Of a stretch of DNA of 58,548 bases, positions 7,534-30,864 are shown in pieces; position 1 is the first letter of the stretch; every line of letters begins with the position of its first letter. Source of the stretch: a virus (Duplodnaviria > Caudoviricetes). A model generated the notes under the pieces. That model saw only the letters and a list, made by a program, of their open reading frames with translations. It was not told the origin of the DNA and did not search any database. The stretch is taken from the IMG/VR virus record IMGVR_UViG_3300046167_000506, positions 1-58,548 of that record; one strand, given 5' to 3'. Made by a program: the position numbers and the translations under genes.

Positions 7534-7996
7534 GTATATCAAAGTCTACATACTCGATAGTCAACTCACCGTCTTCCGCAGCGTCAGCTAAGTCCGGGTA
7601 TATTCTTTTGTAAGCATCAACCGAAGACCCAATGAATCCCTCTTTGGTTATGTTCTGCTGCGAGTGATCTCCTACCAGTAAACAACCAGCAGTGTGGTCA
7701 TCAGTGTTCCCAGTATGAATAAGTATGTACTCAAAGTTTGGGACGTCGCGTACCCAAAGCATGCCGCGATGAAACCCACCATACTTTCTACCATAGCGGG
7801 AGTGAAATCCACCGGTGGTTCTAAGCGTGACCTTATACTCTCCTGCAGGTACTCGTGTTTCCCCGTAAACTTTTTCTTCTCTATGCTCATCTTCTAGTGT
7901 GAATGCTAAGAAATCTCTGTTCCCGTCTGTTATATCAAACAACAACCCCAGTGTACTGTCTTCTTGCGAAGAGAATCTTACTACTTGTAGTTTCAT
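7523..7996 (-). CDS. DUF5675-family putative endolysin (L,D-transpeptidase-like)
   Basis: STLG..TLED..RVPAGEY..VPNFEYILIHTGNTDDHTAGCLLVG (H...C pair); next to the holin. Confidence 0.85.
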   Translation of the reverse strand: MKLQVVRFSSQEDSTLGLLFDITDGNRDFLAFTLEDEHREEKVYGETRVPAGEYKVTLRTTGGFHSRYGRKYGGFHRGMLWVRDVPNFEYILIHTGNTDDHTAGCLLVGDHSQQNITKEGFIGSSVDAYKRIYPDLADAAEDGELTIEYVDFDIPST

Positions 7997-8358
7997 TTTG
8001 TTCTTCCTTTTTTATCAATCGATCTTACCGCAAAGTAACCACCAACAACAGTGACACTGAGCATGTTCCATAAGTTAATCCAAGCTGAGTTGACATCTAC
8101 AATTCCGAGGCCATCAAAGAAAGTCATCAACACTAGAAAAACCACAACCACTATAAGGGTGAGCGGGCGTACATTCTTAGACAACCAAGACGTAGAGTCC
8201 ATGTCTGATTCCCAGCGTTTGCTAATCTCTTGTTCAATCTGCGCCTTTGCTGCAGCCTTTTCTTCCGGAGTCGCCACGAACTTGTCGACGATATTGCCTA
8301 CCGCGTTCACAGTTTCTGTTGCACTCCCTCCTAAAATCTTTTTAATAATATTACTCAT
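7993..8358 (-). CDS. holin (3TM/GTA-holin-like)
   Basis: RWESDMDSTSWLSKNVRPLTL followed by hydrophobic helices and GGYFAVRS.DK basic tail. Confidence 0.85.
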   Translation of the reverse strand: MSNIIKKILGGSATETVNAVGNIVDKFVATPEEKAAAKAQIEQEISKRWESDMDSTSWLSKNVRPLTLIVVVVFLVLMTFFDGLGIVDVNSAWINLWNMLSVTVVGGYFAVRSIDKKGRTK

Positions 8359-11300
8359 CTCCTAAATTTAAAAAATAATTTCTAACCATTCCATCTCTGT
8401 ACGATTTCCAAGGATACATACCCCCATCGTATGTGCCTCTGGAGTTTCTGTTGTAAATAGATTTAAGACCGCTAATCTTTTGTGCATTAGTCATGCGCTC
8501 GTAAGAATTGCTAGTCACAAATCTTTTAATCTCATTGTATCTGTATGCACCGAAAGTCTTCATCATAGCGTGAGCATCCTTTGGCATCACATCAATGTAG
8601 TTCGGTTCATTTACATTAAGGCCGTGGTAAGCAGCCTCACTCTTAGTGAGTTGAATCTTTAGTTTACCCACCGGCATAGGATATCCAGGGATCACATCAG
8701 TATCACCAGTCTCTTTGAACAAATTGTATATCTCAATCTTTACCGGGTCAGTCGAACTTATTCTAGATTTAAATACACCAAAGGTGTTGTAGAGCCAAGG
8801 GTGTTCATCTCCGTCACCAAGCATTAAAGACCCGCCGCCTTCTGGAGTTTGAGTGATTGACTCACCCCAAATGTTTACACGAGGAATGACCTGCGTACCA
8901 GTGCCTAGGTAGTTAAATGTTTTATCACGTAAGATGTTATCAAGCACACTAAAGAAGTCTGCGTTAGGATGTCTGTAGTCTGGAAGATACTCACGTCCAG
9001 AACGATAGAATGCGCTGAGCGAGTTCGGTAAGATTACAGAGAATCCAGAGCGTGAAATATTCTCGAGGTACTTGGTAAGCTGTCTCTCACTTGGATCAGC
9101 AAGGAGCTTGATGATACCGTCTATACCAGTAAGGAAAGACTGATTCATCATAGAGCCTAACACCCCAGGAACAACCCCCGTTAAATCTGCGAGGTAATCC
9201 ATAAAGTTGTTTGATCGATTAAGAACTCTTGATTCCATTTGCGCATCACGCATAGTAGACTTTAAGCCTACAGCCTGGGCCGCTATTACCGCACCACCAA
9301 GACCAAGCTTCTGATAGTTAAACCACACATCGTCTGCCTGGAGTGTAGGGTCTTCGCTTCTCAACATCCGTTTGATACCCGTGATATTAATAGAATTTGG
9401 CGGGGCCACAGAATACTTTAAGTCTCTTTCTCTTGAAACATCGGCATCTACCGGTGTAGTAATCAGCCCGCTTTCCATTAATCTTTGTGTAGCCTTATAC
9501 ATCAACCAGCTCATGAATGCTTTTGATAACAACTCAGAAAGCTCACGTTGAGACACTCTTCCTTTTGCTGCTTTCTTTATAGCAATCGTAGCAAGAGGTA
9601 TGGCAGGGTGTGCTAACTGAATACTTTGAGCTAGGATGTTAGCCGGAGTCTTAACGTATGGCATATGCATACGCACTGCAACACGGAAAGCGTTCTCCAA
9701 CACACGACTACGCTCGCCAATCAAATCAGCGGTTCTTGTTATGGCTTTGTTCAGCCAAGTTGCAAACTGGTTATCTTCCTGGAAGGTAACTTTAAGACCT
9801 GCTTGTGTAGCCCTGGTTCTGTATTCCTCATTAGGGTACTTCAAGAATCTATTCATCTCTTCACCGCTTATGCCTAATGACTTGCCTATTCTGTAGAGCT
9901 CGTAGCCCTCCATGAATTTAAAGAACGGCACATCACCAAAGGCTAGTAACCTAAACATAATGTTTGCTGGTGTCCCACCAACTGCCTCTAAGAATTTTTT
10001 AGCGCGGTAGTCGATCTGGTCTAGCTTAGTTCCATTCTTTACAGAGTCCGGGAGCTTATCACTGTTAGCCATGATTAAACCAAACGCTTTAATCGGAGCA
10101 AGCTGAAGCTGCATGTTGTACTCGAACTTATCGTTGGGAACCGTCTCCCCAATAGCACTCTTATACGCGTCTTTGATACCAACACCGAACTGCTTGCCTG
10201 CATAAATTGCAGCGGCTATAGAAGGCGGTAGTGACGCTAGGCTAGGATCAACATCTTTACCCATAGACCTGCGGATACCATTAATCATAACCTCAGCACC
10301 ATACCCAAGAGTTTTATCTAGGGCCATGATAGGAAGTGTAGAAAGGTTGGCGGTAACGTTAACCATCTGAGACACCGGAGTAAGAAGATTTCCCTGGATT
10401 AGCAATCCAATTAATTTACCCCAAGTCATAGCGTACTTGCTATTGAACTGATTCAGTCTCTTATTAGCCTCAGACACTCTACGCTTAGCATCTTCTAGCC
10501 TACCCTCGATATCTCCAATGCGGTCTAGGTCTGTGGTTTCTGCTAGCTCTTTGATCAAGGCTTGAACATCTTGCTGACCATCAAATAAATCATCAACAAT
10601 AACACCCATCTCTTCGTACTCAGTATCCGATAACTTAGTACCGTTTGAATCGTACACGCTATCCACAAGGTCTTTCATTCCTTCTGGTGTCTGGCCTTTT
10701 ATCTCACCGAACTGACGCAGCAATTGCCCCACAGCTGTACCCGTCTCAAAGAATCTTTTTAGAACAGCGCGATACTCTGCTGTACGGCCCTGCTCTTGAA
10801 GCCTCTTGAGATATTCTAGCGTAGCCAACACACGGAAGTCTCCACTTGCCAAGCTGCTCATAGCGTCGTTGACAACCGAAGGGTTCTCCCCGTCATACAA
10901 AGCAACATCTTTCATCTCAGACATTAGCTCCTCAATACTCATCTCTTCTAACCGCTCTTTGATATCGTCAATCTTCTGAGGCTCATAGAATCGAGAAGGA
11001 TCATTTCTTAACTCGGCACGAACGGAAGCTTCAAACGGAACATCCGGACGTAGATTTTGGAACATCTTACGAGCGTGTCTTCTCTCTCTCGTTTCATCTA
11101 ATCTGGCACGATCACCAGAATCGACATACCAATCTGGATTAAAGATACCACCTGCTCTTTCAAACACCTGGTCTTGAGCTTCCTCAAAGCTGATGTTACC
11201 CTTAGCATACTCTTCCCATATGCTGCGAACGTCTTGCTTGTTTTTCTTCTGACCCTTGAATCCTGCAGTAAACAATGTACGAACAGCTTCCCAGGTAATA

Positions 11301-14300
11301 GACTGCATCTCTCTTGCGAGCACTCCTTTTTCTTCTGCAGCTCTACGATATGCTTCAGCATAAGCAAAGTAAATCCCCTTAACACCTAGGTTAGAACTAC
11401 CGGCCTTAACTTTCATTGCAGCTGTGCCTCCACCAAAGTTGTGAAAAACCTCTGCGCTAGATCCTGCCAAAGGAAGTAGCTCAGCCGCCGCCACCGCATG
11501 TGTGTCAATCGTAACGTCACCCTCTGGGGAATTAGGATTGTTAATGTTGTTAAAGAACGAGCGCACCTTATGCTGGTCACCCACCTGCTTATCAATGTTT
11601 TTCATTGTACCGTTAAGCGCAATAGATGTGGCTGAAGAAATCTCAGCGTAAGAACCCCAAGCCATTGTAGACATAGAGCCGTCCGCTTTCTTAGCGTAGC
11701 CAACGCGCTCACCAATAGGGCTAACGACATGGTAGTTGCGGTCTTCAAACATCTCGTTGTACGTGCGCACAAACATCGCAGCATTCATAGCGCCATTGTC
11801 TTCAAGGCTCATAGCACCGAGGGTTTTACCCAGCATGTTTTGCAAGACGGCTTTTCTTTTTAAGTAAGACTCGTATGTCTTTCTATCAGATACCCTTTTA
11901 AATTCTGACTGGGTAAGTATTTTGTTTTTTACTTTACGTGTGTTACCAAGAGCTTTATTGTACATAGACTTAGAAAACTCTGTATCTTTCTGATTACGCA
12001 TAACGCGCATTACCGCCTCAGCTAATGCCATGTTCTGATACCAGTCTTTCTGTGGAGATAAAGCGGCAAGCATACCTGCTGCCTGCTCTTGAGTGTACCC
12101 AAATCTAGCGCCCATGTCTTGAGCGGTAAGGTTCGCGCCCACGTACCAAAGCTTAGAATATTTTCTCACGTCTTCACTAAAGGAGTCATGAAGTCTGATA
12201 AGGTTTTTAGTAGCTCGATCAACGAACACTTCGTAAATCTCATCAGCCTTTTTTAACTGAGCTTCTGTAGGGTTCTTCGTGTCTAGCGCTTTTGTTCCCT
12301 TGATATCGGACATCATTGTATGCGTGCCTAATACAAAAGCCCCGCGAGCATATACAGCTGGAGCATTCTCTCTGGTATAGTCCATAGAGATTTGTCTAGA
12401 CCCGTCGTAGTTTAGCTTAACGTCTGACTTAGCGGATGTAGCACGAGCAGGTGACACGCGGTTACCCGCTTTTATTTTACCTACCGCAGCTGCAACAGTC
12501 TCATCATCTAGTCGAGCGCGGTTGCCGTCCTCCATGTACCTCAGCTTAGACCTTAGTGCTTGAACTAGACTTGACCTTTCTCTTTCTCTGGTCTCAAAGA
12601 TTGGAGCGAATTGACTTTGATAAGATTCAGTTCCGGCAATAGCTTGAGCGCCGTCATCGAACATAGGAGCTTCAAATCTTTCGATCATATCTCTTAGCCC
12701 ATCAGCATCAATGTTCTTTGTGAGAAGCTCTGCTATAGTTCCAGCCTGGAAGTTAAGCGGTCCTCGCACTGGGGACTCGTCTCCTATAGGGTCAGCAATA
12801 TTATAAGGGCCTTCACGGAAACCTTTAAATAATTCAGTGCCATCGAGGTAAGGCAAAATGATCCCATAGTCGTACTGTCTTTCAATGTCATCAGCTGGGT
12901 TCGGGCTGAGGCTAGATTCTGGACCTTTAGGTAATTGCATCTGTTCAAGAATCTGTCCGTTCAACACATACTGTGCTTCCTCTTGATCGTACATCACATC
13001 CTGCATTGTGGTAATAGGCACTCTACCCGGGATGGCCGACTCATGAACAATCTGATCTTTATTTTCCTCTCTAAACGTAGCGGCCTCTTCACCGACAAGA
13101 CCTACTGGGTTCAGCTGGGTAAATGGTTCTCCCCAAAAGAAGTGTTGCTTCTCTGCATAGCCTGGAATAAACGCAGCTTTTGTCTCATTGGATATTTCAT
13201 CCATGAAAACTCTATGCCCAGTCTCTGCCAGACGAGAGCTCATCATCATGTTAGAGTCGTAACCGTCTATATCAAACGCTTCAAACAATGGGTATCCGTT
13301 TAATGTTTTCTCAGTACTAGAAAACCCTAAATTAGCAGCGTGAATGTCTGGATTAACAGCACCTAGCAAAGTAAACGAACCAGTCATTTGCCAAAGATTA
13401 ACAGCGTATCCAATGAGATCTTCAAAGGTCATAGCCCCACTGCTAACCTCTTCACCTACAACTGAGCCACGAACTTCCATTTCGTTCTCAATATACTTGT
13501 TGATCTCTGCGGTCTTGTATGGGTCTTGATATACTTGCATTAAGGTTAACGCAGTAGCTTGAGCGGTTGGTAAGTCTACACCTCCACGCATATTAGGAGT
13601 AGCCATCATTGAGTCATATAGCTCCTCTGCCGGGGCATTATCTATTAACTCTATAGACTTATCATATACATCAGACACAGCGTGTATAATACGTCTATAC
13701 ACATTGTTTACTGAAACATCATAACTACCACCATACTTGTCAACAACCGTTTTCGACAAATCCTTAGTGACAAAGATGACGCCGCTTCTCTGCCAGTCTG
13801 TTGCAGCATCTAAGAACATTGCCCCCAGCTTGTGATACTTAACGAGCCCAGGTAATTTACCGTCATAATCGTAAATGTATCTAGAGGAAATATATGTTTC
13901 TCTTTTGCTGCCCGTTCTTTTAACTACGACATCACCGTCCGGCGTGCCAACAACAAATGCTTTGCCGAAAGCACCCGAGCCAATCTCTTTAATCTTATTG
14001 AATTCAATACCCCCATTAAGCAGGTACTCTTCTATACGAGCACGGTTGCCACCGTCAACATCTGAACGCTCGCTGGGATCAAGCATGGCTTCACGCTGAT
14101 ACTCTTGAAGTATACCATGGAAAGCGGTCTGTACTTGCTCGTTAAAATAGTATATCGAGTCACGCTGTGGAGTGTCTACTTTAGCAGTACCCGGAGCCCC
14201 ATCTACTTTAAACAGCTCATTCTCTAAGACTCTCATTAAGCTGTAGTCTGGGTTCTTGTGCATTAGCTTAACAAGACCAAGAGTCTTTGCTACATGCTTA

Positions 14301-17300
14301 AGAGCTTCTTTGGATTTAGGTGGATTTTTGTCGGCGTCCACGTAGAAATCTTCTGCCTCAAAATCATCCATTCTGATGTCTGGGTCTGCGTCAAGAATGG
14401 CCTTGATTGTAATAGGAGGAACAACTCCAAGCCCTATACTATTGTAGTAAGCTCTAGCGTTGAAATCCTCTTTGCCTAAACTAGTGTAATAGTCTGCGTC
14501 GGCAGCAGCGTATTTGAGCATGCGGTTACCTTCTTGAGCAAACCCTCTGTACTCTTTGGCGACAAGCACATCAATTTCGCTGGTAGGGAAATTACCCGTA
14601 AGCGAATTGTTGTCATATATATCCCCCATAATATCAAAGAACTTAATAGAGGAAAATTTCTCAATCTTATTCTCGGAATCAATGGCCGCAAACCCTACGT
14701 TACCAGCATGAAGATCAGCTGTTCTCAGACCTAACTTCCCAAGGCTTTCGCTCATCGCCATTTGATTGTCTAGGTAAGCCATAGAAACGTCTATCACTTC
14801 CTCTGAAGAAAATCCCTCAACATCAAAATGGGCACGGATAGCATTGTCGATTAGAGTGAATATCATTTCATTGTTGTCGTACAACGCAGATATCTTTTCT
14901 AATGCCCCAGGGTTGTTTATATCAAGATCTTCTAGGCTTTCTTGTCTTACATCAGAATAATCTATACTACTAGGACTTGCTTCGCCCATTGCCCTAACCT
15001 TTTTCTGAAGCTGCTCTATCTTCCCAACACCTACGATCGCAAACGGATTAAACAAAGTATCGTTAATGTCAGAGGCTATGTTTTCTACTACATGCTTTCT
15101 TAAAAGCACAGAATTTAATTCTGACCTAGATACATCTGAATCTAAAACCCTTCGGTTATCTGTGTTGTAGTCTAAACCAAACAGATGATCATACAAGTAA
15201 TTGTAAAGGTTGGTCTTTAAATCTAGAGCTCGCGAGTTTAGTATAGGCTTGAACACGGCTGAGAGGTTGGTTAGTTTCAACTCTCTAAACCCAGAACCTA
15301 CAGTTCTTTGAGCATCATTGATCGGCTCAAGCCTAGCAGCTTTAAGTTCTTCATAAAGCTCTTTTACCATGGTCATATTCTCGATCATGGATTGGTGCTG
15401 AATTTTACTAATCCCTCTGCTAGGATTTGAAGCACCAGAGTAAGGGAAGTTTCTGTTTAGTAGTTCAGCAACATTCTGAAGATCTCCGATTACAGCACCG
15501 ATATTAAGTTGATAAGCAGAATTATCTCTACTAATAACATCCGTCATTGACGTTGGCAAATACTCTTTGAGCTGATATACAAAAGGAACGCCGTCTATAT
15601 CTGAAGCGATTCCTACATCGTAATAATCAGCAAGACCTGGGAGTTTACCTTTAAACTTATCGAAGTAGTTCGTGGCGATATATATCTCGTCAGCACTCTG
15701 TGCTTGCTTAAGAACAACATCTCGACCATCCTTGTCTTTGACCATGAAAGCATAACCAAAAGCACCGCTACCCAGCTTCTTCATGTCAGACAAATCCAGG
15801 GCACGATCAAAAGCATAGTCGATTAATCGAGCACGGTCATCCGCTGTAGGTTCAGACTCAGTACGCATTGCCTCTGCCGGGTTAGGGTTTGGATTTGGCT
15901 GTGCGTTTCTGACAATATCTAATATGTATATCTTATTACCAGTTCTGTATCCCTGCGTAACACGCTCGATCATATTGACCAAGTCGTTGTCACTCTTTAA
16001 GTGGAACTTACCGAGCTTAGCGCCAAGCATCTTGTTGATGACTCGTCTAGTCTTAGCCTTGGCAGTAGCATCAATCTGATTAAGGTTATCGTTAATGTCT
16101 GCAATAATACCAACGATCGCTTCTTCCTCAGCAATAGCAACAGCCTTTGCCTCCGAAGCACCACGCTCTATATAGAACGCCACATATTTACGAAAGCGCT
16201 CATTGATTTTGTTGCGAAGTGTTTCGTTGTTAACGCTTTGCAGGTCATTGAATAGTTTTGTACGAACCGCCGGCTGCAGAACCATAACGTGACGAAGGCC
16301 CTGCATGCGCAAACTCCTCACGTATAGCAGCGGTAGTTGCATTGTACATGACGTGAATTGCAGGACCGCCTTGTCTTTCGTGTTCATAGAAAGCTTCGTA
16401 CGGACCACCAGTGGCACGCTGCAAAGACTCTTTTGTTTTATGAATAATAACACGCGGGGCTTCTGTATACAAACCAACGAATGCATTGAACGCGCTGTTG
16501 AGCATAGCTGCTATACGAGGTGTAACACCGTGGCGTCTTGGGTTTACTGCGCCACCACGAACCTCTACAGAATTGTCTAATTCTTCAACAGCCTCTCGGA
16601 CTTTCTGCGCTTCAGACGCCGCTTCTTCAGCAGCACCTGGCGCTACTCTTTGGGCTGGGCGAGTAGCTGGGCCAACACTTGGTTGCGCTTGCTCTGCGGT
16701 AGGTTCATTAGTCTCTCGTACAGATCCTTCTTCTGCGAACTCGCGCTCGGCTTGTTCAAGGGCTTGTCTTGCTGCTTCATTGTTTTCAATTACTTGGTTA
16801 ACTTTTGCTCTATCTGTAGGATTCTCTTTAGCTGCTAACAGTATTTGATACGCAGCATCTAAAGCGTCTTGGCCGTAGAGCTCAACAACCTCACCGCTTT
16901 CGTTTTTCATTTGCACACGAACACCTTTATCCGCATCTGCAGAAATTGATTCGGGTGATTGTAATGGATTGAATTGGCCTTCGCCAAATATAGATATGGC
17001 ACTAACGCCAGCTTCCTCGTCAATAGTCAATTTTGTTCCTTGCGCCACAGTAGGGTTGTCCTCGCGCTGATAAACAAACGATCCATCTTCTTGCACCGCT
17101 AATGTCTCGCGCTCAGCAATGGCTGGCTCAAACATTCTAATAGTAGACGGGTCAACCTCGCTGCGCTGCCCGAGCTCTACTTTTTCTGTCTCAGTCTCAA
17201 TAACCAGGGTAGGATTCTCTGGGTTCCCTTCTAAGCGAAGAGCGCCTTGTACCTCTGTCCCATCTATAGGACGCTGAGCTATAACCTCTGTACCGTCTTC

Positions 17301-19075
17301 TAGTGTATTAATAGTTACAGCATCCACCTCAGAGCGGCCTTCAGCGATAGAACTGGCATCTGATGAAGCCGTTCCTGGTACAACCGGAGCCTGCATCTGA
17401 TCTAGGGTAGTGGTTTCTACCGCTGGAGCGACAGCCTCAACCTCAAACGTTCCGAAGCCAGTCAGCATGGTTAGAATTTCTCCCCCTAATCTAGACTTAA
17501 GTTTTGTATCTGTTGCATCCTGCATTTCTTTCTGCAGTGCAAATATCTTTTGACTCTTCTCGATCAACTCTACTTGTTGGTCTTGACTGAGTTCTTCGAA
17601 TGCTCTAATGTTTGCATTGAGCATTTCGTATTTCTTGTTTCTAAGCTCCTTAATGTCGTCACGCAAAGTCTGCTTTGCTTCCTTACCCTTTACATCCTTA
17701 AGCTGATCCTTTGTTTCTTGTATTTTTTTCTCTACTATCTGTACGTTACCGTCACCCATTAACGAAGCAGCGGTAGTAATGCTACTACCGTTTGCCTTGT
17801 TCCGATCCGCCCACTGGATATAGTTTCTCTCTGGGGTCGGCGTCATTAGCTCTGTATATCTAGAGCTAGCGCCGCGGGTTAAAGCGGCTGGGGCAGCCAT
17901 TACTGGACCACCTAATGCTTCCATAACAATATCGAGACCCGAGGTAACTTTACCATCTTCAACAAGTTGACCTGCAGTTTCACCTGCAGCACCACCTGCA
18001 GCATCTACTAATATCTCAGCGACCACTGCCTTTGTTTTACTACCTCCAGCTCTTCTGATAGCCTGGGCTGTCGTACCACCACCACCAGCAAGAAGTGCAT
18101 CTACAGAAGCAATAACGGCAGCACGAACCTTACGGTCCTCCATGGCTTGCTTTATTTTTTTTAACCCTTCTTCAGACTCAAAGGTTTGCGCAATTTCTTC
18201 CGGATCTTCAGTATCTATATGCAATTCCTCGAGAGCCATAGAAATAGCTTCTGACATTTCAAGGGCATACGAACCAGCATAAGCACCACCAACCGCAGCG
18301 CCATACGCAGTACCAGCGACATAACCAACGGGGAACTGTGACCTCGGCCAAAGGGACCGCCGGCCAGACCAGCAGATGCGCCAATAGCTTGACCCTCTGT
18401 GATACTCTCTAACACAGTCTTTTGTGCACCACCACTCGCTAAAGCACCAACGGTAGAAGAGAAGAAGTTACCCATCACTTCTGGTATCACCGTTTTCCAC
18501 CAGCCACTAGGCGAGCCAAAGTCTTCCCATCCAGGAGAACCCCGTTCGTCTCTGTATTTGTTTTGGATTTCGTTATAGTAAGCTAGTCGCTCTGCTGCGT
18601 CAACGTTGTTTTCTGGAGCTTCGTCTAAGAGATCTTCTTGCGCGCCAGTGGATAAGCCCATGGCCATAAAGTTGTTGTACCATCTAGCGGTACGCCCAAA
18701 CCAGTCGTCTCTATCAACGAGCCAATCGTCAGCAATAAGCGCGTGACGATATTCTCTATCGTTTGTCTCTTGAGGCTTGTTGTTGGGAGCGGAACTTTGA
18801 GTGAATTGCTGCGACAATAAGTCGTCCGAAAATTCGGTAGCGTCAGTCTTTAACTCGAACGATAAGTCCAACCCAGTGTCTTCCGAGCCAAAACCCATAG
18901 TGTTTGTAACCTGGGGAGGAGGTTGAGTTTGGTCTTTTTTTTTACTAAAAGATTCTAACGCAAGGGTAACATCGTTGTAAGAAAACCCTTGATCGATAGC
19001 CAATGCAAATATACGATCCTCGCTATATCCGCTAGCATAACCACTCTGCAGTAGTTGCAGTAACTCTTCGTTCAT
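8351..19075 (-). CDS. giant (~3570 aa) internal-virion polyvalent protein: zincin-like protease, two kinase-fold domains, DUF7178-like domain, helical C-terminal region
   Basis: three track ORFs (286, 670, 2711 aa) join after removing two extra bases at ~18330-18350 (GPFAEVTVPVGYVAGTAYGAAVGGAYAGSYALEMSEAI) and one at ~16300 (EEFAHAGLRHVM); lies between tail genes and the lysis cassette. Confidence 0.8.
11117..12508 (-). other. DUF7178-like / HhH-glycosylase-like cassette
   Basis: LWY, AALSPQKDWYQN, HKVRSFFNNI, VTIDTHA, YAEAYRRAA, MQSITWEAVR; family name from memory. Confidence 0.6.
12527..14032 (-). other. protein-kinase-fold cassette 2
   Basis: GSGAFG (13964-13981), VVVK, RE helix, DIHAAN (13331-13348), AFDI at the DFG position; shares GKLPGL with cassette 1. 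Confidence 0.85.
14051..15823 (-). other. protein-kinase-fold cassette 1
   Basis: Gly loop GSGAFG (15755-15772), VVLK, DE helix, catalytic DLHAGN (14699-14716), FFDI at the DFG position. Confidence 0.85.
16100..16460 (-). other. zincin-like metallopeptidase domain (EExxH variant)
   Basis: VIIH..EAFY..AIHV..TTAAIREEFAHAG (EEFAH 16305-16319) with downstream EEEA (16118-16129). Confidence 0.55.
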
Positions 19076-19083
19076 CTAGTATG

Positions 19084-20467
19084 TTATTGTGGAGGCGCCG
19101 GTGGACCAGGGAGAGCAGTCTGCTCTGTACTAATCACCTTTAATGAAGCCTCTTGGTTTAACGCATTTTGTTTTTTAAGTGCATTTACATAAGCGGCGTA
19201 TTCTTTACGCCCCTCTGCCCCACTAGGCTTGATCACCCTACTTCTATTCTCGTAACGAGTCATCTCGTTCCACCCCGGCTGAGGAGAATTACTTGTCTCT
19301 CCAGTGTTCGGGTCTTGATAGTATGTAGTTCCGACATTCTCCTTGACAACAATCCCTTGCCCTTCTGGTAGCCGTGCTGCGCCTAGCACAACTCTTTGAT
19401 AGGTAGGGGTAACTTCTTGCCCTGGGTCAGCCTCAATCAACACCTTGATTGGTTTTTCAAAGGTAGGAATATCTGCTGACATTTTTGTTGTGGTCATCAC
19501 TCCACTAGCATAGTCGTAATCTTCTGACGCAAAGGTTACTGCGTCTGCTCCACTGTAGTCCAGACCATTGCTTTCTTGATCTCTTCTTCTTTGATGAGAA
19601 ACACTGGCTTGCCTCCACGCATTGTCTACATACATATCTGTAGCACGCTTCATCTCTTCCGGGTCAGCCATGATGTTCTCAATCCCTACGCTTAAGTCTT
19701 GAGGATCACTGCCGTAATCCATAGCGGCCAGTGAAGCGGCTGCTGAAAACTGAAGCTCTTCTTGTGTAGCAATTCTATTGCGGAGTGTTTTATCAAACTC
19801 ACCTTTTGGGCGGTTATAGTATAGCCCTTCATATCTGCCACCGTAATCTTCAGCAGAAATAATTCTAGGTATAGACGCCTTAGACGGGAATATCATTGCG
19901 TTATCTGGATTGAACATAGGGTCTTGCGAAGCGCGAATACCAACCATATCACCTCCAGAAACAACCACATCGCCAACAGCGAGGGTCGTATCGAACCTCA
20001 GTATATGCAGACTCGTTACCGTGACGCATAGCGATACTCACCCATCATAGTCTCTGTTGAAATACCAAACTTATTTGGCTGAGACATGCCCGTAAGTAAT
20101 GTGCTTTTATCCGCGTTATGTAACCCTTCGTATTGACTTAGGTATGTGTTTGCAGCACCAACAATTCTATTAATACTGTTTAAGTTTTCTTGAGACGGAT
20201 TTTCCTTCATAAGAATCTAGCGCTTGCTTGTATCCCTCGTGATATGCAGTGAATACCTGCTGAGCTTTTGGCGGCAAGAAACTAACAGACCCTTCAGCAG
20301 CAGACATGCTCTTCTCGAAAGAAGCAGCTTGCGCATCCGCACGCTTACGCTCTCTACGATCTTCCTCAGCGCCCATCGAAGCCATCTGGAATTTGTCCTC
20401 TGATTCCCTGGATAGCAGCTTGAGTAGCTCCAGAACTATAGTCTAGTGGTTTTGAAATTAAACTCAT
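19084..20467 (-). CDS. putative internal virion (ejection) protein, ~460 aa, split by several indels
   Basis: ATG at 20467 overlaps the upstream TGA (MSLISKPLDYSSGATQAAIQG...); track ORFs 20170-20385, 20016-20210 and 19084-19968 are consecutive fragments. Confidence 0.6.
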
Positions 20468-21255
20468 CCTGCTTTCTTATCAAATTTATTAAGTAACCCT
20501 ACAACATATTTTGCTAGCGGTGACTTCTCATCGCCGGCAAGCTTTTTCATTTTCTTAGATTGTGTTGGATTAAAGATATACTCACCGCCGGTAGCTTCTC
20601 CAATCTTCTGTCCGTCTTTAACCAAATCGATAGGATTGCTATTATGGCTAAACTCACCCGGCGTCTTCATACCGTCTTTACCGGTTTTAGGATAGTAAGT
20701 GTCCATGTAGTCGCTATCAGAATAAGCGCTCATTGCCATAGTACCTGCTTGCGCCATATTGTTGATAGCGCTTGACTGCATCTGTCTACCAGCTTGATAA
20801 CCCATCTGAGCACCTTGCAGATCATTAAAGTAACCTTGAGCGCCCAATTGGGTGTTCATCATTCCGGTGCGCATTTGTGCTCCAGCTAATCCTTCAAGTG
20901 CAGATAGTTCTTGTTGCTGAGATTGTGCTCCAATACCTGCAACCGTTGTGTCTGTTCTGCGTTGAGCCGCCGACAGACCTCCGATTAATGCACGAGAACC
21001 ACCAGCCTGCAAAGCAGAAGCGGTATCAGCCATGCCTTGTTGAGCTTGCCGCGTAGCAAGCTGAGCCCCTTTGTTTTCTTTAGCCTTCATGTAAAGGTCA
21101 AAGTATTCTTGCGGTGTTTCCATCTTAGGAATACCCGCAGAGCGAATCTCTTCCTCTCGTGCTTCTGCTTTCTTAGCCTCCTTACGGCCGGAGAGATATT
21201 GGGCTCCGGCTGTAATTCCCTGGACTATAAGCATTCCGGTTACTGGATCTATCAT
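20464..21255 (-). CDS. putative internal virion protein
   Basis: A/G/Q-rich, hydrophobic MIDPVTG N-terminus like podovirus ejection proteins; C-terminal GEFSH..NPID..GEATGGEYIFNP. Confidence 0.65.
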   Translation of the reverse strand: MIDPVTGMLIVQGITAGAQYLSGRKEAKKAEAREEEIRSAGIPKMETPQEYFDLYMKAKENKGAQLATRQAQQGMADTASALQAGGSRALIGGLSAAQRRTDTTVAGIGAQSQQQELSALEGLAGAQMRTGMMNTQLGAQGYFNDLQGAQMGYQAGRQMQSSAINNMAQAGTMAMSAYSDSDYMDTYYPKTGKDGMKTPGEFSHNSNPIDLVKDGQKIGEATGGEYIFNPTQSKKMKKLAGDEKSPLAKYVVGLLNKFDKKAG

Positions 21256-21272
21256 AATAGTATACTATTTTA

Positions 21273-21280
21273 CAAATTTA
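21273..21280 (-). promoter_or_regulatory. Bacteroidota -7 promoter box (TAAATTTG)
   Basis: TAnnTTTG 17 nt upstream of the ATG at 21255. Confidence 0.6.
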
Positions 21281-21284
21281 ATAA

Positions 21285-24200
21285 TTATCTCTGACTCATA
21301 GCCGAATGCATCGGACTGTCTACAAACACTGTGTTTACAGCGTATAGCTCCGACTTATCATTATGCACAGAATTCGTGAGTTCTATTTTAGCATAGTAAT
21401 CTCTAAGCGTATCACCCTCGTGTTTAGCAGATAATACGGCAACTAAAGTATAACCTTCTTCTTGGCCGGTAAGCGCTGAGCTAGTGGTTATTGTTTTAGC
21501 TGTATTTATGCTAACCACCGTTCTATTTAAGTTAGTCATAGAACTGCCGTTTACCAAATACAATGCAGATCCTATAGGGATAGGAAGTCTGTTGACCTTG
21601 TTTTCAAACGTTACGGTAGTCCCATTTACAGAATCTACAACTCCTAGGGTCACATAGTTAGCGGTGGATGCGCTAGTGTCTCTAGGTATAGCAGCGTAAT
21701 ATCCGCGCTCTCTCTCATCAAAATCTCCAGCAGCAATACTGGTTGTTTGACTAGAAGTAGATACGACAGCCGACCACACAGAATCACCTTCTAGCGATAA
21801 CGCCTGGAAAGATTTGACCATGGATGGATTGGCGTTTGCAATGATTGAAATCTTTGCGTCGTAGTTCGTGCCATAGAAATTGCCATACGCTGAGCCAGCA
21901 CCATGTTCCCACATGTATTGTTGCGTATTGCTAACGCTAACGACTTTGAAAGAGAAAAATCTATCATTGATGTGGGTATAGAAGTCTGGCTTAAAAGAAT
22001 AGAAAGACGTGAACACTCTCTTGTTATGACTATACCCAATGGTAAAACCAGTGTAGTTTCCACGGTCTTTGCTGGTCAATACATATTCTGAATTATCTGG
22101 ATCAAACCCTGCAACGATGTCCATCTCCGTCTTTCCGCTTTCAACCAAGTAAGAAGAGAATTTCTTGTCAAAGAAAGAATCCATATTAGGATCGCTGATT
22201 GGAGTAACACCGTCTCTAGAGATACGTAATACACGTTGAGCCTTTATATCAGCAAAGTACATCATTCCGAACCGCTCAACAATAGCAGCAGGATAACCGC
22301 TAGAACCAAAGTCACCGGCATAATAATTAGGTGTACTAAACACCACATTAGAAACCACCACGTTTTGATCGCTAAGAGTTTCTAGTATATTTCTGTTAAC
22401 ACCAACAATACCAACCTTGTGCTCTTGGAACACATAAAGTCTATCCGTCTGATCAACAAGTCGATCTATCTTGCCGTGACGTATCTCAAAGTCACTAAAG
22501 TTAGCGGTAGTAGGGTTGAAGCTAGAGAGGCTTAGTATATTGCTATCAGCTATGTAGGGTGCTGAGTATGTGACGGAAGAACGTCTGCGCACCTGCTTAG
22601 CGTCTTCATTGATTGCGTGTGGCCGCCCTCTAGACGTTACCTCAGAATCAAAGTAATCACTAACACTAGACGACTCTACGTAGAAGGTTTCGTATTCATA
22701 GTCACTATAATTGTCCTCGTTGTATTCAGAGTTACTAGAATCAAAAGGAGCAACAAGTACTTCGCGAGGTTTAAAGTAAACATCGCCATCCGAAAGCTGT
22801 ACCACTGGGTAACCGCCATTTGTTGTGTCGCCCACGTGAGCTCCAGAAGTAATGTCATAAACCTCACCTATTTCGTAGTAAACGGTATCGTTGTTAATTG
22901 TGTTTGGAGAAAGTATTTCTACCATAACTCTTTGACCCCAGTCATCACTTCCAGCCTTTACCTTTGTAAGATTAAAGTTGCTGTATGTTTTGGTAGCATA
23001 ATCCTCGTCTCGTATTACAATAAAATTAGAAGCACGGTTAGGTGTTACCTCTGAACTGTCAGTGATAATCTCTTTACTTAGTACATTATAAATTTGATTG
23101 TCTGGATACCTACGCACCTCAGAAGAGTCGTGGAATGAAATGATTCGTAATACATCACCTTGCTTATATGTGTATTCTAAATCAGCACCCTTGTCCTTGC
23201 TATAGGATTTGTTTTGACCTTCTAGGGGGAATAGATCTAGATATATACTGTCTTGGTCAGAAACATAATGAGCACCAGCGACTCCATATTGAAGAAAGCT
23301 TGCGTACGTTTCGTTGCCACCATACACTATCTGATACTTCTTGGCCCAGCTGGGAGGTGAGTGTTTAATCTTTAAGTCGATCTGCACTCTCCCTAAGTTT
23401 GAGCTACGTGCAGAGTCGGCATATCCTCCTACATACACGCCGTCTATCTTTTGCACAAAAGAAGATCGCCCCTTAGCATCGTAATATACGATGCCGAAGT
23501 TATGCATAGCGCTGGTTTTAAACGAAGAAAGCCCTGCCTCCAAAGAACGTTTTATGTCTTTTTGCAAAGTTACATTTGCAGAAGAAACATATCTAAAGTT
23601 AGACACGCCAAGAGAGCTGGACGCACTTGTTCTAGTATCAGCGGTCGGTCCCCCGTCAATAGTAACAACGCGTCTTGAAGTTGAACTATTGTAGTGAACT
23701 TTTGCCCTTAACACATCAAACTCAACATCTATCTTTCTCTTGTTTGCTACTCCATAAGATGAATCAGCGGTAAAGGATAGTTCTATTTCTGGGAAATCTA
23801 GCGCAGCTTCCACTTGATCTCCTACAGAATATTGTTGTGTACCCGAGCCAACAGAGGTTACGACACCCGTAGCGTTAAAGTTTACACCGTTGTTTGTGTA
23901 GTCGTAAGCAATGTTTGATGTCGCAGCAAATTGCGACCTTACTTCGTCGAGTATCTGATTACGAGTCATTACAGACCCAGCAATGATTGTAGCGCTAAGA
24001 ACCTTATCTGTACTGTAAGGAACATCTATGTAATTATTTGTATTCGAATTACCAGTGTGTTTTCCGAGACCGTAGTTTCCGTTATTAGAACCAATAACAT
24101 AATCCTCGCTAAACAAGTACGCCGGGGAGTCTCTGCTTATTCTGAAAGAACCTTGAGAAGTTCCGCGCAGTGTTACTTTAAGTCTGATAATAGCACCCTG

Positions 24201-25382
24201 GCCATAGCTATCAGCCATATTTGTTCCGTCAATAATAATAGCTGGGCTGTTTCCTAGAGAGATAGGTTGCAGTGTAGCGTCTATTGTGCCAGTATCTTCC
24301 AGCCCTTTATACGTAATAGAAGACTCTACGTTAATATCCACATTATCGTAGCCCTCTGTATAATCGCCGTACACTAATCGATTACCGGATAGGGTTTGCG
24401 CGTGTGCCTTTAGCGGCACATTATCAAAGACCTTGTCTATTTCTAAAGTAGCAACAGCCGGGAACATCCCATCATTAGTAAAGTCAAAGGTAGGATTAGC
24501 TGCAGTACCGTTATCTACTTCTTCAATTTTATAAAAGACTGTAGTCCCACCAAGACGGGCAAGGAATCGAATAGATTCAACTTCCGATCCACCGTTCTGA
24601 TAGGACAGTACAATCTTGTTATTTACTCTTTCAAACTCTGGCTCTACAACACCAGTACCATATGTATTGGGGTTTACCGCCATCTTAGAGTATGTTGATA
24701 TAGCGCTTACTTCTCCGTCTTTATAAATGTACTGATACGCAAACTGAAAGGTCTTATCGGTGACATTGTTACTTTGAACGGCAGCATCTGTGGCGTACTC
24801 AAACGTGATCGGGTCTAGCGGTGGGGTTTTACAGACGGCGAAGAACTCGTCTCTTTCTGCGTTTGTATAATACCCAGTAGCCGTGCTGTTTTTCCAGATA
24901 ACATCTCTATTGGCTAACATGCGGTCCACATTAATCTTTTTAGGCTCGCCTACTCCATCAGTAAAATACACAATTGCTTCATCGTCGCCGTTGAATACAA
25001 CACTAGATTCTACAAAAGAATCAATATCAAAACCCAACTGAGTGCCACGATATAGTATTTTATACTTATTTAAGTTTACATCATAGATATAAATATGATC
25101 TATGTTTACAGAATTACTCTCTGCCTTTGCAAAGTATACCACCTGCTGTTTCTTTGGTACAGCCACAGAGCCGATAACCTTAAGGCTTGTTGGTGTAAAG
25201 TACACCTCGTCAGAAGAGCTTTGCTCTACATGTGTATTACCTTTTATGGTTTTAACGATACCAGCATTGCCGTCATCGTCAGATGAAACCTGCACGTTCT
25301 CTGCATTCAACATCTCTATCGGCTTGAGAAGTTTCTCGTCCGAAGCTTTGTTGAGGTATTGTGGTACGTTCTTGATTATCAT
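21285..25382 (-). CDS. tail stabilization/nozzle protein (P22 gp10 / crAss muzzle-like)
   Basis: 1365 aa; LNKASDEKLL..NAENV, YFTDG..EPKKIN, FAYQYIYKDGEVSAIS, GNRLVYGDYTEGYD, FGIVYYDAKGRSS motifs. Confidence 0.8.
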   Translation of the reverse strand: MIIKNVPQYLNKASDEKLLKPIEMLNAENVQVSSDDDGNAGIVKTIKGNTHVEQSSSDEVYFTPTSLKVIGSVAVPKKQQVVYFAKAESNSVNIDHIYIYDVNLNKYKILYRGTQLGFDIDSFVESSVVFNGDDEAIVYFTDGVGEPKKINVDRMLANRDVIWKNSTATGYYTNAERDEFFAVCKTPPLDPITFEYATDAAVQSNNVTDKTFQFAYQYIYKDGEVSAISTYSKMAVNPNTYGTGVVEPEFERVNNKIVLSYQNGGSEVESIRFLARLGGTTVFYKIEEVDNGTAANPTFDFTNDGMFPAVATLEIDKVFDNVPLKAHAQTLSGNRLVYGDYTEGYDNVDINVESSITYKGLEDTGTIDATLQPISLGNSPAIIIDGTNMADSYGQGAIIRLKVTLRGTSQGSFRISRDSPAYLFSEDYVIGSNNGNYGLGKHTGNSNTNNYIDVPYSTDKVLSATIIAGSVMTRNQILDEVRSQFAATSNIAYDYTNNGVNFNATGVVTSVGSGTQQYSVGDQVEAALDFPEIELSFTADSSYGVANKRKIDVEFDVLRAKVHYNSSTSRRVVTIDGGPTADTRTSASSSLGVSNFRYVSSANVTLQKDIKRSLEAGLSSFKTSAMHNFGIVYYDAKGRSSFVQKIDGVYVGGYADSARSSNLGRVQIDLKIKHSPPSWAKKYQIVYGGNETYASFLQYGVAGAHYVSDQDSIYLDLFPLEGQNKSYSKDKGADLEYTYKQGDVLRIISFHDSSEVRRYPDNQIYNVLSKEIITDSSEVTPNRASNFIVIRDEDYATKTYSNFNLTKVKAGSDDWGQRVMVEILSPNTINNDTVYYEIGEVYDITSGAHVGDTTNGGYPVVQLSDGDVYFKPREVLVAPFDSSNSEYNEDNYSDYEYETFYVESSSVSDYFDSEVTSRGRPHAINEDAKQVRRRSSVTYSAPYIADSNILSLSSFNPTTANFSDFEIRHGKIDRLVDQTDRLYVFQEHKVGIVGVNRNILETLSDQNVVVSNVVFSTPNYYAGDFGSSGYPAAIVERFGMMYFADIKAQRVLRISRDGVTPISDPNMDSFFDKKFSSYLVESGKTEMDIVAGFDPDNSEYVLTSKDRGNYTGFTIGYSHNKRVFTSFYSFKPDFYTHINDRFFSFKVVSVSNTQQYMWEHGAGSAYGNFYGTNYDAKISIIANANPSMVKSFQALSLEGDSVWSAVVSTSSQTTSIAAGDFDERERGYYAAIPRDTSASTANYVTLGVVDSVNGTTVTFENKVNRLPIPIGSALYLVNGSSMTNLNRTVVSINTAKTITTSSALTGQEEGYTLVAVLSAKHEGDTLRDYYAKIELTNSVHNDKSELYAVNTVFVDSPMHSAMSQR

Positions 25383-26206
25383 AATTTAGGAGACTGCTTA
25401 GAATTCTTACGAATAACCTTGAGTGCTTCTTCTTTGGTGAACCTTTTTAGTCTGGAGTTAGCCAGCCTGCGTTCGTTATAGTATTCTGTACGTGCACGCA
25501 TCTTTTCGTTCATGGGTACAGTTGCCTTGTGCTGAATGAGTTTGTAGTAAATATACGCACGCAACGCCTCTTCTATAAACACATGTACAGTAGGGTTTTT
25601 GCTTCTTGCCTCATCACACACGTATTCCAGAACCACTGTATTGACCTGGTTATTAATACTGAGTTCAATACGACTCTGATCTAAATTGATGCGGTACTCA
25701 CCGCTATACTGTCCCCCGCCAAGTCCATACAACTGACCCGCGCTGTTTTCATACAAGTAGTTTCTAAAAACATAAGAGTCATATCCTTTAAGAGAGCTAT
25801 ATTCTTGGGCAGTTTCTGTTACATCCAGCCTATCAAAAACACCGTCAGAATCAGAGTCTATAGCGTTAGCAGCAAGCAGGTCACTACCAGAGGTAACCTT
25901 ATACTTCTGAGCAATATGCATGTTTCTGTTTTCACCAAAGACATACACCAACCCGTCTCCACCGATGACGCCAACCTTAACTAAGTCCACGTAGTCGTCT
26001 GGTAATTCAACCGTATTATTATCAGTATTTACGTTCATCTTTAACGAGCGTATCTTCTGAGATAAATCAAACCCCATCTCACGTATACCGCGAAGGGCAA
26101 ATGTGCGAATCAATGTATCCGTAGCGTTAGCTACAAAGTCATCACCGTCTAACGTGATAATGAAGTCGTTAACTATCTGCTCTAAGTTTACGTAGTTTCT
26201 AGCCAT
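25379..26206 (-). CDS. tail tubular/ring (adaptor) protein
   Basis: ELPDDYVDLVKVG motif; position between capsid and nozzle genes. Confidence 0.7.
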   Translation of the reverse strand: MARNYVNLEQIVNDFIITLDGDDFVANATDTLIRTFALRGIREMGFDLSQKIRSLKMNVNTDNNTVELPDDYVDLVKVGVIGGDGLVYVFGENRNMHIAQKYKVTSGSDLLAANAIDSDSDGVFDRLDVTETAQEYSSLKGYDSYVFRNYLYENSAGQLYGLGGGQYSGEYRINLDQSRIELSINNQVNTVVLEYVCDEARSKNPTVHVFIEEALRAYIYYKLIQHKATVPMNEKMRARTEYYNERRLANSRLKRFTKEEALKVIRKNSKQSPKL

Positions 26207-26943
26207 TATTGTTTGTTTTTAACGTCCTCCTGGCTAGCATACGTAAACACATCTTTATCCCTTAAGTTGATACCGATAAGCATTGCTATCTGAGTTACCA
26301 GCTCGGGAACATAATGGTCCGGCAGTTCAAAGTCTACACTAGTATTAGCCGCGTATACGTGCACCCCGTTAGAGGTGGTGTATCCAAACGACGGAAGACT
26401 AGCGGTTCTTGTGCCAGTTGTAGGGCTAAGGCCTTCTGGGTATTTATAGTATGTAAGTCTTAATCGACTAATGGCGCTAGGAAAAACCTCAATGTCATCA
26501 GATATCAACCCAATAGGATGTGCCTCGCTAGGCGCTGATAAGTCGCTTTTTAAGATATAGTCAATCTTAGATTCATCGTACAGCACTTCAACGTTCACAC
26601 GAGTGCTTTGACCCAACAAGATTGTACCCCCGGAGGTCATAGATATTAGATATGCAAAGTCGTCTGGCTTATTAAATACGCCATTAGATTTTGACAAGGT
26701 TGTCGTTTTTGATAAAGAAGAAAGGTCTTCTTTAATTTGATTGTCGACAGACATATGTCGACTGCCGTCTGCTTGACGTAAACGAAGTCTTTTACTTGCC
26801 ACGATCTTATCAAGCATACCCTTAAACACATTCACCTGCGCTATTTGAGCAAAGTTGTTAAACACAGATGGCGTTACAAAACCCTTTTGCTCTTTATTCG
26901 CAAGGTCTTTTAAGGTGTTATATACCGTATTAACACTAGCCAT
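26206..26943 (-). CDS. tail ring / head-tail connector protein
   Basis: SVNTVYNT..LANKEQKGFVTPSVFNNFAQIAQ and DFELP motifs; synteny. Confidence 0.7.
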   Translation of the reverse strand: MASVNTVYNTLKDLANKEQKGFVTPSVFNNFAQIAQVNVFKGMLDKIVASKRLRLRQADGSRHMSVDNQIKEDLSSLSKTTTLSKSNGVFNKPDDFAYLISMTSGGTILLGQSTRVNVEVLYDESKIDYILKSDLSAPSEAHPIGLISDDIEVFPSAISRLRLTYYKYPEGLSPTTGTRTASLPSFGYTTSNGVHVYAANTSVDFELPDHYVPELVTQIAMLIGINLRDKDVFTYASQEDVKNKQ

Positions 26944-26964
26944 TTTATTACTTTTAGATACCTA

Positions 26965-26972
26965 CAAATATA
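26965..26972 (-). promoter_or_regulatory. Bacteroidota -7 promoter box (TATATTTG)
   Basis: upstream of 26943, directly after a terminator. Confidence 0.65.
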
Positions 26973-26974
26973 CC

Positions 26975-27002
26975 AAAAAGAAAGGGGCAGTTTCCCGCCC
27001 CT
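26975..27002 (-). terminator. intrinsic terminator
   Basis: AGGGGC/GCCCCT stem followed on the - strand by TTCTTTTT. Confidence 0.6.
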
Positions 27003-27032
27003 CACTATATCAACTTTCTAATTAGCAGTAAC

Positions 27033-27815: not shown

Positions 27816-27850
27816 TTTAATAGTATTTAATTAAATTTTAAAAAAGATAT

Positions 27851-27873
27851 AAAGGGGAGACCGAAGCCTCCCC
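27851..27873 (-). terminator. intrinsic terminator after the major capsid gene
   Basis: GGGGAG/CTCCCC stem followed by a T-rich tract on the - strand. Confidence 0.6.
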
Positions 27874-27888
27874 CCCATATCAAAGTAC

Positions 27889-29253: not shown

Positions 29254-29273
29254 AATAGTTTATTTAGGCGTTA

Positions 29274-30380: not shown

Positions 30381-30407
30381 ATAAATTGATTTTCAATAAA
30401 TTATACA

Positions 30408-30415
30408 CAAAGATA
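30408..30415 (-). promoter_or_regulatory. Bacteroidota -7 promoter box (TATCTTTG)
   Basis: upstream of the scaffold-capsid operon. Confidence 0.65.
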
Positions 30416-30503
30416 GATAATAAAACATTTTTTTCGCAGGGGGGTTGCTATTGTGAATAGAATTTGATAACTTGGTACTAGTTAAACTTAAAACATATGC
30501 CTT

Positions 30504-30839: not shown

Positions 30840-30864
30840 GTTTGGTTTGGTTTGTTGCAATAAG

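Follow-up and report, generated by a model that had tools for sequence, protein, structure and literature searches.

Phage kinases have been described as broad counter-defence weapons, and the T7 kinase (T7K), i.e., gp0.7, is reported to act in host takeover and counter-defence and to disarm the defences of the host (PMC13645617). JSS1_004 is reported to be a second phage kinase with a counter-defence role (PMC12345140). Kinase domains inside very large phage proteins were described by Iyer et al. 2017. In that paper, a monophyletic group of truncated kinase domains, i.e., Kinase-PolyVal, was assigned to polyvalent proteins of Bacteroidetes and Verrucomicrobia (pro)phages, with a proposed role in modifying host proteins in conflict (PMC5512222). 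Here, two kinase-like modules in tandem were found in a giant protein gene of the virus record IMGVR_UViG_3300046167_000506. The whole stretch analysed, 58,548 bases long and estimated to be 97% complete, is called the window below. Both modules lie in an open reading frame (ORF) of 2,711 codons at 8351..16486 on the minus strand. We lean towards the reading that they are catalytically competent atypical kinases of an orphan lineage, with activity predicted from sequence, and that they belong to a polyvalent, probably virion-delivered giant protein of a marine podophage.

The original prediction had placed two divergent, apparently intact protein kinase domains at 12527..15823, which corresponds to amino acids (aa) 222-1320, i.e., to both modules; residue numbers are those of ORF 8351..16486. 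All of the motifs listed in it were recovered in both copies in this ORF. The glycine-rich loop (G-loop) GSGAFG was located at aa 239 in module 1 and aa 836 in module 2. The beta-3 Lys was found in VVLK at 257 (K260) and VVVK at 853 (K856), and the shared segment GKLPGL at 280 and 876. The catalytic loop reads DLHAGN at 591 and DIHAAN at 1047, each with [VL]GF directly after it, and the DFG position is covered by FFDIMG at 616 and AFDIDG at 1070. The predicted large spacing between G-loop and catalytic loop is real, although it measured 352 and 211 aa instead of about 345 and 205 aa.

The closest relatives of the giant protein were single proteins, of which six (P0002-P0007) were found among 3,710 candidates of a word-index search. 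Five of the six are 3,337-3,565 aa long, and P0006 (2,330 aa) is an N-terminally truncated relative. Module 2 of the window was 42-73% identical to the six relatives, and in the module comparison P0007 was 42-43% identical. Another protein, P0008 (3,106 aa), has one kinase module with about 26% identity to module 2. Both modules were found in P0002-P0005 and P0007, and P0006 keeps the motifs within its span. The kinase motifs were kept in every relative found.

Conservation was read from an alignment of nine module sequences of three lineages, i.e., module 2 of the window and of three loci, module 2 of P0007, the single module of P0008, and module 1 of the window and of two loci. The invariant columns were RAR, G32, G34, G37, A39, V42, G47, V50, K52, E59, Y66, G72, P75, G76, K104, S233, D243, H245, N248, F251, D268, and F290. 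In these nine sequences, the set includes every ATP-binding and phosphotransfer residue that a kinase needs. The Lys stands 20 residues after GSGAFG and the Glu 7 residues past the Lys, and the signature of the protein kinase-like (PKL) fold, i.e., GxGxxG, beta-3 Lys and alpha-C Glu, is present. The catalytic Asp, the metal-binding Asn five residues on and the downstream DFG-type Asp were all invariant (D243, H245, N248, D268). The metal-binding Asp of FD[IV]xG comes 20-22 residues after the Asn, and in PKA this distance is shorter, i.e., approximately 13.

The modules are minimal, with the 7-residue Lys-Glu gap, the DxHxxN loop and a helical insert between the N-lobe and the catalytic loop. 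After FD[IV]xG, neither an activation segment nor an APE-type motif was recognisable, and in the AlphaFold models the substrate-binding subdomain and the C-terminal substrate-binding helices of protein kinases were not recognisable either. The kinase core of module 2 covers approximately aa 814-1130 and is followed by a tail without a recognised fold. Module 1 has an insert of approximately 235 aa between the lobes, which is mostly lineage-specific: from G-loop to catalytic loop, module 1 of P0007 measures 180 aa versus 352 aa in the window. This insert is not ancient, and the role in substrate specificity that the original prediction gave to the inserts is conjectural.

The two modules resemble each other in sequence. 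By BLASTP, the N-lobes shared 33 of 76 positions (E 3e-17) and the catalytic segments 28 of 91 (E 7e-6), which is far beyond chance. Judged by their sequences, the modules are paralogues which arose by internal duplication. The duplication is older than the split from P0007. The proposal of an ancient duplication is upheld in this respect.

The fold was searched by sequence profile, language-model features and structure. A five-module profile searched against PDB sequences returned 13 rows (E 0.013-2.4), all 13 of which were eukaryote-like protein kinases whose alignments kept the G-loop and the beta-3 Lys in register. The ESM feature neighbours of module 2 were phage hypothetical proteins, followed by OspG_kinase, Pkinase and YrbL clusters (0.94), and those of module 1 were ABC1/Pkinase, RIO1 and APH clusters (0.94-0.95). 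Two AlphaFold models were made for module 2, one of 516 aa and one of its 326-aa core. The elements of both are ordered as beta1-3, helix, beta4-5, helices, catalytic loop, beta hairpin and FD, i.e., in kinase order. In Foldseek against PDB, every match listed for both models had a kinase-like fold.

VIA, a fold search independent of Foldseek with 48,161 chains, was applied to the same models. With the 516-aa model, five of the rows listed ran over residues 3-376, i.e., TkArkI (Z 6.7), amicoumacin kinase (5.8), APH(4) (5.2), fructosamine-3-kinase (5.1) and the Cdc7 complex (4.9), and the other 45 covered the C-terminal helical hairpin only. With the core model, all 50 matches listed were kinases or kinase-containing complexes, and their alignments of 143-189 residues (nearly all 160-190) spanned both lobes. 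The best were RIO1 (Z 6.2), RioK1 and Cdc7 (both 5.6), and NEK1 (5.5). In BFVD, the best two rows were phage proteins named 'protein kinase' (E 7.4e-3 and 1.0e-2), from phages which we take to be T7-like.

Compared with described kinases, the modules come near to several families without falling into one. Like Kinase-PolyVal as described by Iyer et al. 2017, each is a stripped-down kinase domain with an intact active site inside a very large multidomain phage protein. The setting is also common to both: the giant protein, with 3,573 aa and no fewer than four modules, likewise belongs to the Bacteroidetes sphere of phages. Unlike members of that family, however, the window gave no match to the Kinase-PolyVal hidden Markov model (HMM; PF18762). 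Two hallmarks in the paper's description are also missing. The His-Asp insert is absent, with no conserved His before the Asp (..VNPD, ..RTAD, ..AAPD, ..GIVD), and the Gln of the last N-lobe strand is not kept, the residue before K104 being Q in module 1 and T in module 2. The tandem duplication is a further difference. Giant phage proteins of the Bacteroidetes sphere that contain a kinase domain have already been published (PMC5512222), whereas the sequence family, the tandem duplication and the scaffold are new to the libraries searched.

T7K (PHROG 2828) is, like the modules, a phage-encoded atypical kinase. In an alignment of five T7-type kinases, the loop type was common to both, i.e., FDxHSGNxM in T7K and D[LI]HxxN[LV]GF in the modules, and the Lys-to-Glu distance is short in both (6 and 7 residues, respectively). 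At the DFG place, however, T7K has DPV (PMC13645617) and its relatives in the alignment TDP, whereas the modules have FD[IV]xG (FDIMG and FDIDG). T7K is also a free-standing early product of approximately 360 aa, whereas the modules are part of a late giant protein. When the N-lobe alone was compared with T7K by hhalign, the score exceeded 200 of 200 column shuffles (20.7 versus 10.7 +/- 2.05); only the 15-column G-loop was aligned, which is not family-specific, and the comparison was set aside.

RIO kinases were the best structural neighbours of the core model, i.e., RIO1 (Z 6.2, 167 aligned), RioK1 (5.6), RIOK3 (5.3) and Rio2 (5.1), with values in the range for which VIA warns of a common arrangement. 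RIO and Bud32 kinases and the modules are alike in being minimal, without an activation loop or substrate-binding subdomains. However, the RIO1 HMM (PF01163) gave no match, and RIO kinases are cellular ribosome-biogenesis factors, unlike the phage modules. A DxHxxN-type catalytic loop also occurs in ABC1/UbiB kinases. ABC1/UbiB clusters were near module 1 in the ESM features (0.94-0.95), and ADCK3 was found by VIA with the core model (Z 4.6), but PF03109 gave no match at E <= 10 and no ABC1-specific N-terminal extension was detected in the modules. Kinship with ABC1 or APH kinases, suggested at the outset from the loop type, was not supported by an HMM match for either family. On sequence grounds, the modules are best placed as an orphan lineage of the kinase-like superfamily, outside the profile libraries searched, and membership in T7K or Kinase-PolyVal is not established. 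Their way of working may be likened to either by analogy.

The giant protein extends beyond the ORF of the modules. Its N-terminal 920 residues correspond to two ORFs upstream of 8351..16486, i.e., 16245..18257 and 18215..19075, which were 86% and 89% identical to P0002, respectively. In tblastn, P0002 (3,565 aa) aligned to the window at 19075..18347, 18332..16299 and 16300..8354 in frames -3, -2 and -3, which places the frame breaks near 18332-18347 and at 16299/16300. DNA alignment with two related loci (L005 and L009) located extra bases in homopolymer runs of the window, including the 16299 indel. Most pieces of the contigs of four public runs from four studies (X1, X2, X4 and X7) matched the window at 99% or more. 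All four had one letter fewer at 18330 and at 18356, and one letter fewer at 16299 was found in X1, X2 and X4, X7 being without coverage there. With the three letters removed, 8351..19075 becomes one frame of 3,573 codons. Errors, or a variant private to this record, are the most likely cause of the splits, because independent contigs are without the three extra bases; the contigs can show only that intact forms of the gene exist. The kinase region is open in itself and lies downstream of both frameshift sites. The modules had been called apparently intact, which holds for the two of them, but not for the gene around them, which single extra bases split into three ORFs in the record.

The rest of the giant protein is better conserved than its kinase region. 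Compared with P0007, the stretch ahead of kinase 1 was 66% identical, the DUF7178 module 78% and the C-terminal 920 aa 76%, whereas the kinase region was the most variable part (29-53%). The DUF7178 module was 78-90% identical to P0002-P0007 and is, together with the C-terminal region, among the best-conserved parts. In P0008, a methyltransferase-like segment with VLDYGAGLG was found at the place of kinase 1 (aa approximately 1150-1252), although its match to Methyltransf_23 (E 0.0011) was below the cut-off. Because P0008 has this segment at the kinase 1 place together with one kinase module, the sequences point to an enzymatic slot with exchangeable content in an otherwise conserved giant scaffold. 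Polyvalent proteins sensu Iyer et al. 2017 combine several unrelated domains of the effector type in one polypeptide, encoded by a phage or conjugative element, with shuffling between relatives. The protein of the window fits this pattern, as it unites two kinase modules and DUF7178 with conserved regions at both ends. The LPD and MuF signature domains of polyvalent proteins were not among the Pfam matches of the ORF or of the modules.

A short motif, [DN]RAR[LI], marks the start of modules in the ORF. It occurs four times, against an expectation of 0.023, and none of 5,000 shuffles reached four copies. Its wider form is G/D-[DN]RAR[LI]-[DEI]-[DE]. P0002-P0005 and P0007 have the motif at the corresponding four positions, and the truncated P0006 keeps the three sites within its span. 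Elsewhere in the six frames of the window, only one copy was found, in a 73-codon frame which is probably non-coding. We would guess that the motif is a processing or docking site.

The DUF7178 module is the only part of the 2,711-aa ORF with relatives in cultured phages, i.e., in three of 50,697 records, over aa 1361-1793 (tblastn). The PF23802 match proper covers aa 1422-1506 (11969..12223, minus strand). A faint match of DUF7178 to a phage DNA adenine methylase-like domain was seen (PF22555, E 0.06), and a literature search on DUF7178 found nothing published. One of the three records is a 42.7-kb Rhodobacteraceae phage (L014, OP947163.1), with the module in a gene of approximately 9.3 kb which is named 'methyltransferase' and runs across the record start (42499..9155). 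Small marine genomes of podophage size may more generally encode giant proteins with DUF7178.

The giant gene stands in a structural block on the minus strand. The order is terminase (phrog_6681), portal (phrog_6547), 'virion structural protein' PHROGs including a 1,365-aa protein, two small ORFs, the giant gene and the holin gene. The giant gene is the last of the structural module, just before the holin, and this gene order agrees with the earlier description of its product as a structural-region protein. The portal was approximately 30% identical to portals of 87 phage records, i.e., of Flavobacterium (68), Cellulophaga (15), Tenacibaculum (2), Maribacter (1) and unclassified Caudoviricetes (1). 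Because the portal is nearest to those phages, a host among Flavobacteriia is a reasonable guess from sequence. In Cellulophaga phage phi38:1, four genes annotated as structural (gp98-gp101) follow the homologue of the 1,365-aa protein, and gp101 is 1,691 aa long. No statement on gp100 or gp101 was found in the literature on phi38 virion proteomics. Between the portal region and the genes of the capsid region, the minus strand has two further very large ORFs, 36255..41030 (1,591 aa) and 41037..45464 (1,475 aa). PHROG annotation is almost absent from both, and phi38:1 has no counterpart of them at that place.

Features of the giant gene and its surroundings in the window (coordinates are window positions)
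Feature	Position	Strand	Remarks
Whole giant gene	8351..19075	-	3,573 codons; three ORFs in the window as given, i.e., 18215..19075, 16245..18257 and 8351..16486
Frameshift site 1, two extra bases (18330, 18356)	18330..18356	.	In or beside homopolymer runs; contigs X1, X2, X4, X7
Frameshift site 2, extra base	16299..16299	.	CCC/GGG run just upstream of the kinase region; contigs X1, X2, X4; L005, L009
[DN]RAR[LI] copy 1 (DRARL, aa 217)	15824..15838	-	Module start
Kinase-like module 1 (aa 217-813)	14048..15838	-	Motifs, BLASTP, invariant columns, ESM neighbours
Module 1 G-loop	15755..15772	-	GSGAFG
Module 1 K260	15707..15709	-	Beta-3 Lys; the Glu is E267
Module 1 catalytic loop	14699..14716	-	DLHAGN
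Module 1 D618	14633..14635	-	Asp of FFDIMG
[DN]RAR[LI] copy 2 (NRARI, aa 814)	14033..14047	-	Module start
Kinase-like module 2 (aa 814-1321)	12524..14047	-	Motifs, BLASTP, invariant columns, AlphaFold and fold searches
Module 2 G-loop	13964..13981	-	GSGAFG
Module 2 K856	13919..13921	-	
Module 2 E863	13898..13900	-	
Module 2 catalytic loop	13331..13348	-	DIHAAN
Module 2 D1072	13271..13273	-	Asp of AFDIDG
[DN]RAR[LI] copy 3 (NRARL, aa 1322)	12509..12523	-	Module start
DUF7178 module (aa 1322-1791)	11114..12523	-	Pfam PF23802, E 1.4e-22 and 3.7e-25; phrog_3842
[DN]RAR[LI] copy 4 (DRARL, aa 1792)	11099..11113	-	Module start
Conserved C-terminal region (aa 1792-2711)	8354..11113	-	76-94% identical to P0002-P0007; no Pfam match
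Holin gene	7993..8358	-	Immediately downstream, end of structural block; phrog_3427, E 6.4e-19

Several results weigh against virion-delivered active kinases, some on the side of the fold and some on the side of the virion. In Pfam, only DUF7178 was listed for the whole protein, with no kinase-clan family at E <= 1, and the isolated modules matched no kinase-clan family at E <= 10 (Pkinase, APH, ABC1, OspG_kinase and YrbL included). PHROGs and NCBIfam gave no kinase family for the modules even at E <= 10. The HMMs of Kinase-PolyVal, phrog_2828 and RIO1 had no match in the six frames of the window; PF18762 and PF01163 were searched at E <= 10, and the RIO1 control responded in 11 of 14 genomes. 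Both AlphaFold models were poor, i.e., pLDDT 50.6 and pTM 0.51 for the 516-aa model and pLDDT 48.8 and pTM 0.53 for the core, because the input alignments were shallow (9 rows). With these low-confidence models, Foldseek against PDB gave no row at E <= 1e-3. VIA gave no row at Z >= 8 with either model, and the tool warns that Z values of this kind may reflect a common arrangement only. Kinship with T7K was not supported by hhalign against the T7-kinase alignment, in which the probability was only 8.2% over 21 columns and the G-loop formed a second, co-linear piece. Of two further searches against PDB sequences, phmmer returned one irrelevant row (E 1.9), and a profile made from the entire giant protein returned five, none with E below 0.51. 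No single fold or profile test was significant, the best PDB profile E being 0.013. For the virion, the profile of the giant protein against phi38:1 gp101 had an hhalign probability of 0.9%. Similarity to gp101 is undetectable, and the virion placement therefore has gene position as its only ground. Pfam detected no known virion-targeting, packaging or portal-binding domain in the giant protein. Membrane-spanning segments were considered and rejected, since hydropathy essentially never reached 1.5 over 19 residues in P0002, P0007 and P0008.

Regarding the fold, a kinase-like fold of the modules is nevertheless very probable, because the individually weak searches agree and the motifs are conserved. 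The full catalytic signature of the original prediction stands, with its residues invariant, whereas its kinase fold is carried by low-confidence models without a significant fold or profile match. Structure prediction and Foldseek comparison, which it had proposed as a check, returned kinase-fold neighbours only, from models of the low confidence given above. That the motifs are chance or convergent features in a duplicated domain of some other fold has a very small probability. None of the tests was significant by the usual standards, the models have low confidence, and a familiar fold may be what AlphaFold falls back on with GxGxxG-type motifs; however, five independent motifs stand in the right order and spacing and are themselves the invariant columns, and sequence profile, language-model features and fold comparison all returned kinases only. 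It is also improbable, although somewhat less so, that the modules are ATPases or conformational switches, as RIO and Bud32 kinases largely are, or structural pseudokinase-like domains that help the giant protein to fold, pack or be ejected. RIO1 (best, Z 6.2), RioK1, RIOK3, Rio2 and Bud32 were among the structural neighbours, and the modules are embedded in a huge, otherwise enzyme-poor scaffold. The invariance of every catalytic residue in three lineages, the catalytic Asp and both metal ligands included, speaks against a pseudokinase, and the modules are the most variable and exchangeable part, which fits host-facing effectors better than a mechanical core.

The substrate and the place of action leave more room for alternatives. 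Kinase-fold enzymes of the APH, macrolide, choline or ArkI type might act on a non-protein substrate, i.e., a small molecule, an envelope sugar or lipid, a nucleotide signal or RNA. For the first (516-aa) model, the best Foldseek rows were macrolide 2'-phosphotransferases and N-acetylhexosamine kinase, the best VIA rows over the kinase part were TkArkI (Z 6.7), amicoumacin kinase (5.8) and APH(4) (5.2), and the modules are without a recognisable activation segment or the C-terminal substrate-binding helices of protein kinases. We consider this unlikely, since eukaryote-like protein kinases are the nearest to the N-lobe in sequence (all 13 PDB profile rows), the core-only model ranks protein kinases and RIO kinases first, and no APH or choline-kinase HMM matched; the Z and E values are too weak for ranking subfamilies. 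A slightly better chance, still well short of even, is given to real kinases in a giant protein that is a late non-virion protein and acts inside the infected cell, e.g., on phage or host proteins at assembly or lysis. The virion location is drawn from gene order only, homology to any protein shown in a virion was not detectable, and no packaging or portal-binding domain was found. On the other side, the gene is inside the structural block, at a place occupied in related podophages by large genes with a structural annotation. Its product of 3,573 aa takes 18% of the 58.5-kb genome, and giant proteins of such a genome share are typical of packaged internal proteins.

If the modules are virion-delivered kinases, as we favour, the giant protein would be packaged and would leave the capsid with the DNA, like other giant internal podophage proteins. 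As soon as infection begins, the kinases would draw on the ATP of the host and phosphorylate host targets, of which proteins are the most likely. An arms race would then lie behind the variability of the inserts and the module swaps between lineages. The purpose of the phosphorylation would be takeover or counter-defence, as reported for T7K after its synthesis (PMC13645617). A bolder form of this mechanism, which we regard as rather improbable, is an 'effector train' in the capsid. The four G[DN]RAR[LI] sites would be processing or docking sites between an N-terminal piece, two ready-made kinases, a DUF7178 enzyme and a C-terminal piece, loosely analogous to effector release from MARTX toxins. 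The kinases would phosphorylate host defence or takeover targets on DNA entry, before phage transcription. A narrow literature search found no published description of a virion-carried phage protein kinase.

The module family was rarely found in databases. The DNA of the kinase region had no match in blastn against 50,697 phage records, and the kinase stretch of P0008 had none in tblastn at E <= 0.01. By phmmer, aa 210-1130 found only two proteins among 1.84 billion representatives. Other word-index searches gave one fragment among 8,000 candidates and three proteins, the query included, and scans of IMG/VR and of JGI metagenomes gave six and three loci, respectively. Word-index and contig scans added close relatives only. 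A stand-alone version of the module was not found at 178-797 aa, the only lengths searched. The module family is tiny in present databases. The phage lineage itself is widespread and not rare: sequence nearly identical to 15800..18800 was found in 18 runs, from as many studies of seawater, marine, estuary and viral metagenomes (2018-2025), each with at least half of the words sampled from this stretch.

The existence of such modules has a meaning for the annotation and biology of these phages. Automatic annotation of this record will miscall the giant gene, which is split by three bases. The module family is invisible to Pfam, PHROGs and NCBIfam, and such modules are consequently annotated as 'hypothetical'. 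With its exchangeable kinase slot, the giant protein agrees with the concept of polyvalent proteins and adds a new scaffold to it. T7K and JSS1_004 are early products which must first be made in the host, whereas a packaged kinase pair, if true, would already be present at DNA entry.

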